Assembly: GCA_046052125.1 (NCBI GenBank) | Contig: JBJOMY010000002.1 | Coordinates: 1 to 64,000, forward strand | DNA: 64,000 nucleotides | Reading direction: 5' to 3' | Source of the DNA: Cyanobacteriota bacterium | Lineage (GTDB): Bacteria > Cyanobacteriota > Cyanobacteriia > PCC-6307 > Cyanobiaceae | Made by a program: the position numbers and the translations under genes | In this document: piece by piece, positions 38,511-42,855 of the stretch | Position numbering within the stretch: the first letter of the stretch is position 1 | How the letters are laid out: each line of letters opens with the position of its first letter | The notes under the pieces: generated by a model | The model's input: only the letters and a program-made list of their open reading frames with translations | The model's database searches: none | Told to the model about the DNA's origin: nothing

Positions 38511-40142
38511 ATGGCCGCACGCCAGAGCTCCGGGCCGGTGCTGAAGCTCGATCAATTGCAGGTTCGCTACCCCGAGGCGAACAGCGACACCCTGGCCGGA
38601 CTAACGCTCACGCTGAACCCAGGAGAGCGACTGGCGCTGGTGGGCCCCTCCGGCTGCGGCAAGAGCACCGTGGCCCGGGCCGTGCTGCAGCTCCTTCCCC
38701 AGGGCAGCCTCTGCCAAGGGGGGCTGGAGTTGTGCGGCCAGGATCCGCGGGCGCTCCGGCGCGGGGCGCTGCGCAGGCTGCGGGGCGAAGCGGTGGGGCT
38801 GGTGTTTCAGGACCCGATGACCCGGCTCAATCCGCTGCTCACCATCGGAGAGCACCTGGCCGACACCCTGGCCCAGCACCGGCCGGCCTGGAAACGCCAC
38901 CAGGTGAGGCTGCGGGCGGAGATGCTGCTGGAGCGGGTGGGCATCCGCGCCGATCGCTACGGCAGCTACTCCCATGAATTCAGCGGTGGGATGCGCCAGC
39001 GGCTGGCGATCGCCCTGGCCATGGCCCTGGAACCGGCGCTGGTGATCGCCGACGAGCCCACCACGAGCCTCGATGTGGCGGTAGCGGGGCAGGTGATGGA
39101 AGAACTTTGCCGGCTGTGCGAGGAAGCGGGCAGCGCCCTGCTGCTGATCAGCCACGACCTGGCCATGGCCGGGCGCTGGTGCCAGCAGATCGGCGTGCTC
39201 GATCAGGGAAGGCTGGTGGAGCAGGCTCCGGCCACGGAGCTGCTCACGGCACCGCGATCCGCCCTGGCCCAACGGCTGGTGGGAGCAGCCCGCAGCCGCG
39301 AAGGCAGCCGCACGCCCGAAGCCCCAGCCGCAGCGCCTCTGCTGCTCGAACTGGAGGATCTGCGCTGCTGGCACCCCTTGCCAGGGCTGCCCTGGCAGCG
39401 CAACTGGTACCGGGCCGTGGACGGGGTGAGCCTGCAGTTGCGGCAAGGCGAAACCGTTGGGGTGGTAGGCGCTTCCGGCTGCGGCAAGAGCACCCTCTGC
39501 CGGGCCCTGATGGGGCTGGCGCCGGTGCGGGGAGGCACGGTGCGGCTGCAGGGGCAGGATCTGCGACGCCTGAGGGGCCAAGCCCTACGGCGCGCACGGC
39601 GGCGCATTCAGATGGTGTTTCAGGACCCACTGGCCTGCCTGAACCCAGTGATGACCGTGGCTGAAGCGATCGCCGATCCGCTCTTGATCCATGGACTGAG
39701 CAGCCGCAGCCAGGCGATGGAGCGGGCCCGCGAGCTACTGGCCGCCGTGGGGCTGAACCCGCCGGAGGCCTATGCACAGCGGCTACCCCGCCAACTCTCA
39801 GGCGGACAGCAACAGCGGGTGGCCATCGCCCGCGCCCTGGTGCTCGACCCACAGGTGCTGCTCTGCGACGAGAGCGTGAGCATGCTCGATGCGGAAATCC
39901 AGGCGGAGGTGCTGGAGTTGCTGAGGGAGCTGCAGCAACGGCTGGGCCTGGGCCTGGTGTTCGTGACCCACGACCTCTCGGTGGCCAGCGGCTTCTGCCA
40001 GCGCGTGATCGTGGTCGATGGAGGACGGATCGTGGAGGAGGGCCCCGGCGATCAGCTGCTGGAGCATCCGCAAGCTGCGATCACGCGCACGCTGGTGGAA
40101 GCCTGTCCTCGCCTGCCTCAGCCGGCCAGCTCCCACCACTGA
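38511..40142 (+). CDS. Dipeptide/oligopeptide-type ABC ATPase with two fused NBDs
   Basis: Two Walker A motifs (GPSGCGKS, GASGCGKS); FSGGMRQR and LSGGQQQR signatures. Confidence 0.92.
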   Translation: MAARQSSGPVLKLDQLQVRYPEANSDTLAGLTLTLNPGERLALVGPSGCGKSTVARAVLQLLPQGSLCQGGLELCGQDPRALRRGALRRLRGEAVGLVFQDPMTRLNPLLTIGEHLADTLAQHRPAWKRHQVRLRAEMLLERVGIRADRYGSYSHEFSGGMRQRLAIALAMALEPALVIADEPTTSLDVAVAGQVMEELCRLCEEAGSALLLISHDLAMAGRWCQQIGVLDQGRLVEQAPATELLTAPRSALAQRLVGAARSREGSRTPEAPAAAPLLLELEDLRCWHPLPGLPWQRNWYRAVDGVSLQLRQGETVGVVGASGCGKSTLCRALMGLAPVRGGTVRLQGQDLRRLRGQALRRARRRIQMVFQDPLACLNPVMTVAEAIADPLLIHGLSSRSQAMERARELLAAVGLNPPEAYAQRLPRQLSGGQQQRVAIARALVLDPQVLLCDESVSMLDAEIQAEVLELLRELQQRLGLGLVFVTHDLSVASGFCQRVIVVDGGRIVEEGPGDQLLEHPQAAITRTLVEACPRLPQPASSHH

Positions 40143-40351
40143 GGCTTCATGAAGTAGTCCTCGTCCTCGTAGTCCACCAGGGCGCCATCGGCGTGCTTCA
40201 CCAGGTCGCTGGGGCGCACCTCAAAACCGGCCTGACGGGCAATCGCAGCCACTTCATCCGCATCGGCCGCCGCCGCGGTGGAGAGCTCCTGCTGCAGAGC
40301 CGGATCCTGGCGGACAGCGGTGATGAAGGCGTGGAGTGCCTGCTCGGCCAT
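40118..40351 (-). CDS. Nif11-like leader-peptide protein (77 aa), in frame with the end of rluD
   Basis: MAEQALHAFITAVRQDPALQQEL...EVAAIARQAGF matches the Nif11/ProcA leader pattern. AGAGG lies 8 nt before the ATG. Confidence 0.75.
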   Translation of the reverse strand: MAEQALHAFITAVRQDPALQQELSTAAAADADEVAAIARQAGFEVRPSDLVKHADGALVDYEDEDYFMKPQWWELAG

Positions 40352-41332
40352 GGATAAGGCCTCTGGAGGGAACGTGGAACCAGTCTGATGGCGGCGGCGC
40401 AACAGGGCCAGCAGCTTCTCGAACACAGGCGGCAGCGGTGCCTCAAAGAGCATCCGCTCGCGATGAATCGGATGGTCGAGCCCCAGTTGAAAGGCATGCA
40501 AAGCCTGGCCGGGCAGGGCCAGCGGCAGCTTGCGGCAGCGGGAATACACCGGATCGCCCACGATCGGATGGCCGATATGGGCGCAGTGCACGCGGATCTG
40601 GTGCGTGCGGCCGGTGTCGAGCTTGAAGCGCATCAGGGAGTAATCGCCAAAGCGCTCCAGCAGGGTCCAGTGGGTGCAGGCATGGCGGCCGCTGTCGTCA
40701 TGCACCACGGCGTATTTCTTGCGATCGGCGGGATGGCGGCCGATGGCGCCCACGATCGTGCCGTGCTCGGCGGCGGGCACGCCGTGCACCACCGCCAGGT
40801 ATTCGCGTGAGGCGATGCGCTTCTGGATCTGCACCTGCAGCTTCACCAGCGCTTCCTGGCTTTTGGCCACCACAATGCAGCCGGTGGTGTCTTTATCGAG
40901 GCGGTGCACGATGCCGGGCCGCAACTTGCCGCTGATCCCAGGCAGATCCGGGCAGTGGTGCAGGAGCCCATTCACCAGGGTGCCGTCTTTATTGCCGGGG
41001 GCCGGATGCACCGTGAGACCAGCCGGCTTGTTGAGCACGATCAAGTGCTCGTCTTCAAACAGCACATCCAGGGGGATCTCCTGGGGCATCAGGTAAGGCA
41101 GCGGCTCCGGCGGCGGCATCCAGACCTCCACCGTGTCGCTCTGGCGCAGGGGGGTTTTGGCCTTGCCCGTGACGCCATTCACCCGCACGTAGCCAGCATC
41201 GATGAACTTCTGGATGCGGGCGCGGCTCTGCTCGGGGCGCTGAGCCACGAGCCAGCGGTCGAGCCGCATCGGCAGCGGCTTGGGGTAGGTGAGGGTGACG
41301 AGCTCGCCCTCGCCTTCGCCGAATCCGCTCAC
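40118..41332 (-). CDS. rluD: RluA/RluD-family pseudouridine synthase with in-frame C-terminal Nif11-like extension
   Basis: S4-like RLDRWL, NKPAGL, VHRLDKDTTG, TGRTHQIRVH and QALHA. No stop after ...LLALLRRR. Confidence 0.9.
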   Translation of the reverse strand: MSGFGEGEGELVTLTYPKPLPMRLDRWLVAQRPEQSRARIQKFIDAGYVRVNGVTGKAKTPLRQSDTVEVWMPPPEPLPYLMPQEIPLDVLFEDEHLIVLNKPAGLTVHPAPGNKDGTLVNGLLHHCPDLPGISGKLRPGIVHRLDKDTTGCIVVAKSQEALVKLQVQIQKRIASREYLAVVHGVPAAEHGTIVGAIGRHPADRKKYAVVHDDSGRHACTHWTLLERFGDYSLMRFKLDTGRTHQIRVHCAHIGHPIVGDPVYSRCRKLPLALPGQALHAFQLGLDHPIHRERMLFEAPLPPVFEKLLALLRRRHQTGSTFPPEALSMAEQALHAFITAVRQDPALQQELSTAAAADADEVAAIARQAGFEVRPSDLVKHADGALVDYEDEDYFMKPQWWELAG

Positions 41333-42360
41333 GGCAGCTCCAGGGCCAGGGGCCCCAGCATGCCCCGCCGGAAATCATCGAGAAAGCGCTGGGCCATGCG
41401 GGCGGTGTCGCCACTGGTGTGGCGCTCTGCCGCGGCCCGCAACCAACCATCGGCATCCGGGCGCGGCGCAGCTGGCACACCGTCCAGCGAAGACGCGCCC
41501 GCAGACAACTGTCCAGGATTCTGCGCAGTCTGTACAGAATCCTGGACCGTTGCGATGGAGAGATCCGCAGCTGGTCCGCGCTCCAGAGCCAAGCCCTGAT
41601 CCGGACCTTGATCCAAGGCCTCAACCGGAACGCCATAGCGGCTCTCCAGCAAACCCGGCTTCACGCCAGAAGCCGCCACGCGTTCCAGCGCAGCCAGCAT
41701 CTGCACGAAGGCCATCGCCACCGCTTCGCCGTCGTAGGCCGCCTGACCGATGTCGTCGCAGAGGGCCAGGCGCAGTGCCGCCAGTTGGTCGTCGAGCCGC
41801 GGGGGCAGCACCCCCGGGGCATCGAGCAGATCAAGGTCCTGCCCCAAGCGCACCCAACGCAGGCTGCGGGTGACGCCGGCGCGGCGGGCGCTGTCCACTA
41901 CCTTCTGGCGCACCAAGCGGTTGATCAAGGCCGATTTGCCCACATTCGGAAAGCCGAGCATCAGGGCGCGCACCGGCCGGGGGCGCATGCCGCGGGAGCG
42001 GCGGCGTTCATTAAGAGCATCACCGGCGCGGATCGCCGCCTGTTGCAGCTGCTTCACGCCAGTGCCCGCCTTGGCATCGCTCCACCAGGGGGTCTGCCCC
42101 TGGCTGCGGAACCAGGCATCCCAGGCCTCTTGGGCGGCTTTCGGGATCATGTCGCGCCGATTAAGCACCAGCAGGTGCTGCTTGCCTGAAATCCAGCGCT
42201 GCAGGCGGGGGTGACCGGTGGCCGTGGGGATGCGCGCATCGCGCACCTCGATCACCAGGTCCACCTTGGCCAGGTTGTCGGTGAGCGAGCGCTCCGCCTT
42301 GGCGATATGGCCCGGATACCACTGGATCGCCGGGGCGGCGGAGCTCAGCAACTCACTCAC
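41329..42360 (-). CDS. ylqF: Ribosome biogenesis GTPase RbgA/YlqF, with apparent ~45-aa insertion
   Basis: IQWYPGHIAKA, EVRDARIP, GFPNVGKS and DAPG. Confidence 0.95.
   Translation of the reverse strand: MSELLSSAAPAIQWYPGHIAKAERSLTDNLAKVDLVIEVRDARIPTATGHPRLQRWISGKQHLLVLNRRDMIPKAAQEAWDAWFRSQGQTPWWSDAKAGTGVKQLQQAAIRAGDALNERRRSRGMRPRPVRALMLGFPNVGKSALINRLVRQKVVDSARRAGVTRSLRWVRLGQDLDLLDAPGVLPPRLDDQLAALRLALCDDIGQAAYDGEAVAMAFVQMLAALERVAASGVKPGLLESRYGVPVEALDQGPDQGLALERGPAADLSIATVQDSVQTAQNPGQLSAGASSLDGVPAAPRPDADGWLRAAAERHTSGDTARMAQRFLDDFRRGMLGPLALELP
41507..41552. repeat. 13-bp perfect inverted repeat inside the ylqF insertion
   Basis: gtccaggattctg (41511-41523) / cagaatcctggac (41535-41547), extendable past one mismatch. 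Confidence 0.85.
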
Positions 42361-42734
42361 GGAACCACCAACACAGGGCAGGGCGCCAGCTGGATCACGC
42401 GCGAGGCGGTGCTGGGCGCTTCGTCAGCCTCCAGCGTGAGCCCTCGCGTGCCCATCACGATCACATCGGCGTTGATCTCATCGGCCACATCGCAGATCAC
42501 AAACGCCGGCTTGCCCTCCCGCTCGATCACCTCACAGCTCACGCCCTGCTCCTGAAAACGGCTGCGGGCCTGCTCCAGCAGCGCGGCCACGGCGGCCGGA
42601 TCGTCCTGCCCCGGCTCCACAACCGACAGCACCACGAGGCGGCTCTGGTGTTGCTGGGCCAGCTTCAGGGCCGTGGCGGCGGTTTCAGCCGCCTGGCGGC
42701 TGCGATCAATCGGGAAGAGAACGGTCTCGAACAT
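42357..42734 (-). CDS. Universal stress protein
   Basis: MFETVLFPID, GKPAFVICDVA, DVIVMGTRG and CPVLVVP. Confidence 0.93.
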   Translation of the reverse strand: MFETVLFPIDRSRQAAETAATALKLAQQHQSRLVVLSVVEPGQDDPAAVAALLEQARSRFQEQGVSCEVIEREGKPAFVICDVADEINADVIVMGTRGLTLEADEAPSTASRVIQLAPCPVLVVP

Positions 42735-42855
42735 GGCCGCTGGGCCGGTGTTCCCTCTGTTTAGCGCCAGAAGCGACATCAGCCAGGGCCTGCCGTATTA
42801 AGCCCCCCCTTGACCGGCCCGCTAAATTCGCCCGACCCTTCTTTTGCTTAACGCC

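Follow-up and report, generated by a model that had tools for sequence, protein, structure and literature searches.

The stretch of DNA analyzed here, referred to as the window, spans 64,000 nucleotides (nt) of a Cyanobacteriota bacterium of the family Cyanobiaceae (assembly GCA_046052125.1, contig JBJOMY010000002.1, positions 1 to 64,000) and carries on its minus strand an open reading frame (ORF) of 404 amino acids (aa) in which a pseudouridine synthase of the RluA/RluD type runs, through a 13-aa linker, into a 77-aa C-terminal tail bearing a Nif11 domain. The ORF was found to be a genuine in-frame RluD-Nif11 fusion, conserved among freshwater picocyanobacteria of several genera and not the accident of one strain. 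We consider it likely that it is a maintained domain fusion produced by the insertion of a small-gene cassette, the tail of which probably serves as an accessory module of RluD and not as the precursor of a ribosomally synthesized and post-translationally modified peptide (RiPP).

An in-frame fusion of a pseudouridine synthase and a Nif11-type tail

Both the ORF list and the sequence itself bear out the layout put forward in the original prediction, namely an RluD-type synthase followed in frame by a 13-aa linker, an ATG at 40351 preceded by AGAGG (~10 nt upstream) and a linker CAG codon at 40387-40385. The protein proceeds from ...EAPLPPVFEKLLALLRRR to the linker HQTGSTFPPEALS and on to MAEQALHAF...WWELAG and the stop codon, with no stop in between. 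The features of the locus are as follows.

40118..41332, minus strand: whole fused ORF, 404 aa, GTG start, TGA stop at 40118-40120
40391..41332, minus strand: RluA/RluD-type pseudouridine synthase part, aa 1-314, ending LLALLRRR
41129-41269, minus strand: S4 domain, aa 22-68, Pfam 35.9 bits
40577-41047, minus strand: PseudoU_synth_2 catalytic domain, aa 96-252, Pfam 111.1 bits
40895-40897, minus strand: codon of Asp146, within HRLDKDTTG
40352..40390, minus strand: linker, 13 aa, aa 315-327
40382..40387, minus strand: CAGACT hexamer, candidate -10-like element, 30 nt upstream of the tail ATG
40121..40351, minus strand: tail, 77 aa, aa 328-404, ATG at 40351-40349
40202-40351, minus strand: Nif11 domain of the tail, PF07862, aa 328-377
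~40133-40186, minus strand: predicted beta-hairpin and short helix of the tail, motif G..LV.Y.DEDYFMK..WW
40118..40390, minus strand: segment missing from relatives with an empty site, ~270 nt, comprising linker, tail ORF and stop
41329..42360, minus strand: ylqF/rbgA, ribosome biogenesis GTPase gene, upstream of rluD, TIGR03596 280.4 bits (cut-off 208.2)
38511..40142, plus strand: convergent double ABC-ATPase gene, the last 25 nt of which overlap the end of the tail ORF (40118-40142)
42357-42779, minus strand: Usp (universal stress protein) gene, directly upstream of ylqF

The continuity of the linker was further examined in public sequencing runs, 24 of which were found, all in the form of Logan contigs, and four aligned to the window. 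Contigs of two runs from freshwater metagenomes crossed the linker without a gap: records 3 and 4 of X1, an RNA library (40327-40552), and record 18 of X23, a library of unrecorded kind (40113-40417). The source of these contigs is relatives and not reads of the organism itself, and they inform on the continuity of the linker only.

Judged by profile searches, the enzyme part is an ordinary RluA/RluD-family synthase and the tail a true member of the Nif11 domain family. The synthase part scored 292.8 bits against TIGR00005, the RluA subfamily model of NCBIfam (cut-off 192.7), and 111.1 bits against Pfam model PF00849 (cut-off 26.8). Its S4 domain and HRLD motif are intact; none of the four residues of the latter (H143, R144, L145 and D146) varies in 43 fused proteins, and D146 is the aspartate that we take to be catalytic. 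NF008385, the equivalog model for E. coli-type RluD, was still the best specific model, with 246.2 bits against a cut-off of 351; because this score lies below the cut-off, any assignment of the exact rRNA target sites is putative. Two more RluA-family paralogs are encoded in the genome.

As to the tail, the Nif11 model PF07862 gave 45.6 bits on the whole protein and 49.6 bits on the last 77 aa alone (cut-off 23.8), and the leader model TIGR03798 gave 38.4 and 43.3 bits, respectively (cut-off 32.3), with positions 1-53 of its 68 matched; the Nif11 likeness that had been read from the letters alone was thus borne out by the hidden Markov models. The best-conserved part of the tail lies outside the Pfam model. 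It consists of a nearly invariant family motif close to the C-terminus, G-x-L-V-E-x-x-D-E-D-[YF]-F-[ML]-K-x-x-W-W, and the residues M1, D30, D32, G42, G56, L58, D63, E64, D65, K69, W72 and W73 did not vary among the 23 tails, fused and free, that were compared. AlphaFold2, run on the tail alignment, returned a model with a mean predicted local distance difference test score (pLDDT) of 86 and a predicted template modeling score of 0.71, in which helices at residues 2-15, 17-23, 31-40 and 47-55 are followed by a hairpin (59-62/65-68) and a last helix (72-75). In the full-length model, linker residues 319-324 fell below a pLDDT of 50 and the blocks of the tail ranged from 69 to 84. The tail profile matched PDB entry 9zn4, the nuclear magnetic resonance structure of a Nif11 RiPP leader, at E 6e-8, and an account of ECOD curation places Nif11 in a three-helix 'LigA-like' group (PMC12353581). 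A Foldseek search of the tail model against the PDB yielded no match at E 0.001 or better. A likeness to an EF-hand pair (VIA-align Z 4-5.5) was rejected: such scores fall below the noise level stated by the tool for models made of helices, and a canonical EF-hand loop is absent from the tail.

Five clusters of 79-111 aa fitted the full-length tail profile (positions 1-76 or 5-76) when a library of 1.84 billion cluster representatives was searched; the remaining matches were a few fragments and otherwise generic Nif11 domains. All 81 longer proteins with the tail that were retrieved in the tail-only search were RluD fusions or fragments, with no other partner. Taken on its sequence, the tail is thus set apart as a protein family of its own, combining a Nif11 fold with a conserved C-terminal motif. 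The genome of the window (G000) holds 11 other Nif11 loci above the cut-off, one of them a Nif11-cupin fusion, and the WW motif occurs in none of these.

Two groups among these other loci are recorded here for their own sake. The Nif11/cupin-type protein has its Nif11 domain at the N-terminus of an open frame of 209 aa (C4:269722-269892, L024). Four near-identical Nif11 paralogs (MSWSELERFV...; C1:300410-300550, C3:24136-24276, C4:2321-2464 and C1:706838-706978, L028-L031) share a conserved stretch, cttggcatggtgagagacccaggg, immediately before the ATG.

Distribution and origin of the fusion

The whole protein was searched in 41 genomes, of which 25 belong to the same genus (the window's own counted) and 16 to other cyanobacterial families. 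A full match over residues 1-404 without stops was found in seven of the 25 same-genus genomes (G000, G007, G011, G021, G008, G017 and G020), and one more, G002, carries the fused form on a cut contig that gives a partial match. The match stopped at residue 316-330 in 13 of the 25, and four were fragmentary or devoid of the gene; in the 16 genomes of other families the best match ended by residue 314-330. Among the best 120 clusters of a protein database, 86 were fused proteins, 396-425 aa long, that carried each of the three Pfam domains and reached down to 77% identity; two were fused proteins cut at the N-terminus and 32 were plain synthases of 314-334 aa. The source names of the database matches include Synechococcus sp. 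GFB01 and several metagenome-assembled genomes of lake 'Cyanobacteria bacterium', and the JGI name of the fused forms is '23S rRNA pseudouridine1911/1915/1917 synthase'. Fused proteins have thus been public under plain pseudouridine-synthase names with their domains assigned, and what we describe is an overlooked architecture rather than a new kind of system.

The 77-aa tail was searched in 401 genomes of the same family, and the loci fetched were then inspected directly. Four states were distinguished. Intact fused loci numbered 28 in three genera (9 in this genus, 4 in g63 and 15 in g49), so that the question of whether relatives keep the fusion, left open by the original prediction, is answered in the affirmative both here and in the protein clusters. 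In a split state, found in 10 genomes (G125, G089, G214, G246, G273 and G284 of g65; G183, G234 and G276 of g79; G373 of g80), the tail is a separate same-strand ORF directly behind rluD, at a distance of -4 to +110 nt in the nine genomes in which it was measured; rluD there continues 3 to 22 codons past the RRR codons before its stop. In a third state, seen in marine-type genomes (g53, g21) and two g49 genomes, the tail is free-standing: no rluD lay within 3 kb of it in the seven of seven loci checked, and rluD was located elsewhere in the five genomes searched. The fourth, empty state comprises 13 same-genus genomes with a short rluD and no tail homolog within 1.5 kb.

Some peculiarities of the split and free-standing loci may be mentioned. 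In G214 (L078, 783-1229) and G089 (L066), rluD and tail share one frame with a single TGA between them, and read-through of this stop codon would restore the fusion; the G214 match had been listed as an open frame of 416 aa, and the stop was seen on direct translation. The marine free-standing homologs (L068, L069, L072 and L073; G314, G378, G318 and G339) contain three conserved cysteines (C..S..C.DVDDQC), at the positions of which freshwater and fused tails have Ser or Ala. In G318 and G339, a short-chain dehydrogenase gene lies immediately downstream of the tail gene, and FUR is close by.

Comparison with empty sites reveals how the fused ORF came about. The tail-less rluD of this genus ends RRR+AG(A/V)D..PP...*, as does that of the marine genome G378, the outgroup on the RluD tree, and the last ~11 codons of most tail-less rluD genes inspected (L008-L016, L086) correspond to the complementary strand of the convergent ABC-ATPase gene at its 3' end. 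In DNA alignments, the window differs from the empty sites by one clean block of ~270 nt, which reaches from after the RRR codons (40390) to the tail TGA (40118) and past which the common sequence ggcaggcg... resumes. The block is therefore best described as a cassette, made up of a short upstream region and a small ORF, that was inserted at the end of rluD, and the sequences aligned thus demonstrate, as far as alignments can, that the fusion arose by insertion of a small-gene cassette into the 3' end of rluD. The linker would be variable between conserved flanks because it represents the former upstream region of the cassette.

The tail is under purifying selection. Its median pairwise ratio of nonsynonymous to synonymous substitution rates (dN/dS) was 0.23 in 28 fused loci and 0.24 in eight split loci, with 0.15 and 0.14, respectively, for the synthase core. 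Linkers came in eight distinct lengths of 10 to 20 aa among 69 parsed fused proteins, and lengths of 19 and 26 aa were visible among 17 unparsed fused rows. These counts suggest that the reading frame survived many changes in linker length, with the proviso that they are not an independent test, since fused proteins are in frame by definition and were, moreover, selected by length. A quick maximum-likelihood tree of the RluD core (55 rows) gathered the non-marine rows in one clade with 99% support, the first branch of which, g63, is entirely fused. The window falls in an all-fused clade of nine rows (98%), and the rest of the enclosing 18-row clade (96%) is entirely empty. The empty sites may be either ancestral alleles spread by recombination or the products of precise losses.

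Role of the tail and alternative explanations

The mechanism that we favor may be pictured as follows. A small Nif11-family gene with its short upstream region would have been inserted at the extreme 3' end of rluD, after ...LRRR, at the point where rluD converges on the ABC-ATPase gene. Where the frame of rluD is open into the cassette, as it is in the window, the synthase would be joined, via a flexible linker of 10-26 aa, to a folded, acidic 77-aa module predicted to consist of four Nif11-type helices, a beta-hairpin and a WW helix with an invariant DED..K..WW. This tail would then probably act as an accessory binding or regulatory module for RluD on late 50S particles. The gene rluD forms an operon-like pair with ylqF/rbgA, which encodes a 50S assembly GTPase and whose stop overlaps the rluD start (GTGA), and a part in late 50S maturation appears the most likely function of the tail on the basis of sequence and gene context.

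Several findings weigh against this reading. Close relatives can do without the tail: 13 of the 25 same-genus genomes have a tail-less rluD, and 14 of 29 same-genus genomes had no tail match whatsoever at E 1e-6. In the ten split genomes the tail persists as an ORF of its own, and fusion is thus not required for its retention. Marine homologs have no ribosome-related neighbors, being surrounded by genes for a short-chain dehydrogenase, GST and FUR. One insertion site serves all fused and split loci, so that the adjacency to rluD counts as a single event and not as repeated evidence of a link with RluD. The fused state requires seven changes on the RluD-core tree, at least three of them forced by well-supported branches, and approximately unbiased (AU) tests gave borderline p values, 0.055 for a single clade of all cassette-bearing rows and 0.045 for a single clade of all fused rows; with values so borderline, we favor no particular order of insertion, fusion, fission and loss. 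Finally, only one of five full-length models was confident.

A first alternative concerns the products of the locus. In every one of the 38 fused and split loci, the tail ATG is preceded at a distance of 23-48 nt by the sequence CA[GA]A[CG]T; the distance is exactly 30 nt in 27 of the 28 fused ones, and the background expectation is 0.007 per 41-nt span. The hexamer persists in loci in which it does not code for protein (G373, G276, G089 and G214), lying in G373 beyond an rluD stop that itself precedes the ATG by 110 nt. The rluD stop codons of G183 and G234 fall across it in another frame, and it is absent from tail-less rluD ends. Its conservation when non-coding or off-frame, together with its absence where there is no tail, thus argues for a constraint on DNA or RNA and for a hexamer that belongs to the cassette. 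Positions A2, A4 and T6 never vary and fit a -10 box, and free-standing homologs present TAGAAT, TAGAGT or TATAAG 21-24 nt before their ATG. The hexamer may accordingly be regarded as a candidate -10-like promoter element. It is not shared by the 11 other Nif11 loci of the genome. A search of Rfam gave no meaningful match (one, at E 0.82), and RNAalifold detected no consensus structure in 16 loci around the hexamer and ATG, the window's own fold having a z score of +0.4.

On these grounds, the locus might yield two products, the fusion and a free 77-aa tail, the latter from an internal promoter with CAGACT as its -10 box and from the internal ATG at 40351; transcription would start ~20-25 nt before this ATG, and tethered and free tails would coexist in the cell. 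Besides the features of the hexamer and the -10-like boxes at a comparable site in free-standing homologs, such a scheme would agree with the near invariance of the tail Met in 86 fused proteins and with the failure to find a second copy of the tail family in G000. However, a scan for consensus sigma-70 promoters returned nothing within 39900-42500, a C at position 1 makes the hexamer a poor match to a -10 box, and no -35 element is evident. The hexamer moreover encodes Gln-Thr in the fused forms and the Nif11 model begins with the Met, so that part of the conservation may be inherited or operate at the level of the protein. As to a general Shine-Dalgarno sequence before the tail ATG, this candidate was rejected: the AGAGG noted in the original prediction is present in the window, but AGAGG/GAGG-type sequences were kept only in this genus and G406, the other fused and split lineages having none. 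On balance, a dual-product locus is a possibility that we entertain tentatively and, from what can be read in the DNA, hold to be rather doubtful.

The main rival to an accessory function of the tail is neutral read-through, in which the small gene came to lie behind rluD by chance and the fusion is tolerated, or only aids translation of a tail whose job is unrelated to the synthase. The single insertion site would fit such a course of events, as would the intermixing of fused, split and empty states on the RluD tree, the equal dN/dS of split and fused tails and the marine homologs unlinked to rluD, and in DNA of high G+C content chance stops are rare. It is at odds with the persistence of the fusion over three genera and down to 77% identity, and with at least eight linker lengths among fused proteins compared with approximately three split lineages, a count that is biased by the length-based picking of the fused forms. 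We thus rate neutral read-through as unlikely, although well worth bearing in mind against the preferred reading of a maintained accessory module.

That reading can be taken a step further. The Nif11-like module might be a dedicated late-50S maturation factor that binds RluD, the 50S subunit or YlqF/RbgA, its invariant DEDYFMK..WW end, acidic and aromatic, acting as a docking peptide or RNA mimic, with the series from free through neighboring to tethered tails preserved to this day and both forms possibly made from a retained internal promoter. In this elaborate form the proposal is speculative, and we give it a small chance of being correct. If true, it would provide the first function for a non-RiPP Nif11 protein and a hint at what Nif11 did before its recruitment as a RiPP leader.

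The original prediction had likened the tail to a RiPP precursor, a comparison that did not hold beyond the Nif11 domain itself. According to the passages of Haft 2010 (PMC2887384) that define them, precursors of the Nif11-derived group (N11P) have a Nif11-like leader that terminates in ELSDEELEAVAGG and precedes a short core. Four features of these precursors were considered, and the tail displays only one of them, a TIGR03798 score above the cut-off. Positions 54-68 of TIGR03798, which hold the ELSDEELEAVAGG motif, are unmatched by the tail, and there is no Gly-Gly for cleavage in the tail or its relatives. There is no Cys in the tail, and its last 20 aa, rather than forming a variable core, are the most conserved and are predicted by AlphaFold2 to fold onto the helices. 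No gene for modification or export is adjacent, the neighbors being ylqF, usp and an ABC-ATPase gene without a C39 domain. In the genome, which is 99.96% complete, there was no LanC_like match, and the single C39-peptidase ABC transporter is encoded on another contig. By all indications of its sequence, the tail is not a RiPP precursor. That it should nevertheless be a RiPP or bacteriocin-type leader, cleaved off so that its C-terminal 20 aa are exported or modified, strikes us as very improbable, although, apart from the TIGR03798 score and the one C39-peptidase transporter, the free-standing family is automatically named 'Nif11-like leader peptide family natural product precursor', a 143-aa JGI open frame over the tail (P0271) is called 'predicted ribosomally synthesized peptide with nif11-like leader', and the pair G56-A57 might conceivably serve as a GA-type cleavage site.

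That this strain alone shows a recent stop loss, or a mistake of sequencing or assembly, can practically be dismissed: the CAG at 40387-40385 is indeed one change from TAG, but the same open frame recurs in many genomes and in metagenomes, contigs of two public runs cross the linker gap-free, and the event was a cassette insertion and not the loss of a stop between two resident genes.

Relation to known systems

In line with the original prediction, which knew of no described fusion of this kind, no published architecture joining a pseudouridine synthase to Nif11 was found among the best-ranked matches of literature searches on Nif11 with RluD, RluA or pseudouridine synthase. With RluD/RluA-family synthases (TIGR00005; NF008385), the window protein has in common the S4 domain, PseudoU_synth_2, the HRLD motif and the YlqF neighbor, to which it adds the 13-aa linker and the Nif11-type C-terminal domain of 77 aa. 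With Nif11-derived RiPP precursors (N11P, the prochlorosin ProcA type and the MppE leader of 9zn4) the tail shares the helical Nif11 leader fold and family. Unlike N11P precursors, it lacks a Gly-Gly, a variable core rich in Cys, Ser and Thr, and a modifying enzyme or exporter nearby, and it forms the C-terminal domain of an enzyme instead of standing free, with an invariant end for which a folded structure is predicted.

Multi-Nif11 proteins with 3-4 repeats and the Nif11/cupin proteins (TIGR03890), which are likewise not RiPP proteins, offer precedents for a Nif11 domain built into a larger protein. In the latter, however, the Nif11 domain is N-terminal and its partner a cupin, whereas here it is C-terminal and its partner an RNA enzyme; TIGR03890 gave 13.6 and 17.4 bits against a cut-off of 159.45. 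A free-standing picocyanobacterial family (P0121-P0125, 77-111 aa) is orthologous to the tail and has the same Nif11 fold and DED[YF]F[ML]K..WW end. Its members, in contrast to the fused tail, are separate genes behind rluD or elsewhere, the marine forms being distinguished by their three conserved Cys.

The passages of Haft 2010 (PMC2887384) that touch on Nif11 proteins outside RiPP biosynthesis give them no known function. The present case, in which a Nif11-fold protein is physically tied to a ribosome-modifying enzyme and is under selection across several genera, is a real and overlooked, if modest, finding, and its main value lies in a natural experiment on such non-RiPP proteins, the split, fused and empty alleles of close relatives offering a testable handle on their function. 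It also illustrates cleanly how a domain can be gained when a small-gene cassette is inserted, and it cautions those who mine genomes that TIGR03798 and PF07862 matches of the tail family are not natural-product precursors.

A more distant paralog of the tail, with 31-33% identity and an open frame of 138 aa, was found in same-genus genomes (L081, G012 C20:2839-3072; G297 C3:96835-97068). It ends ...EQADEQLEQTWWRL, and the rluD of G012 is without a tail.

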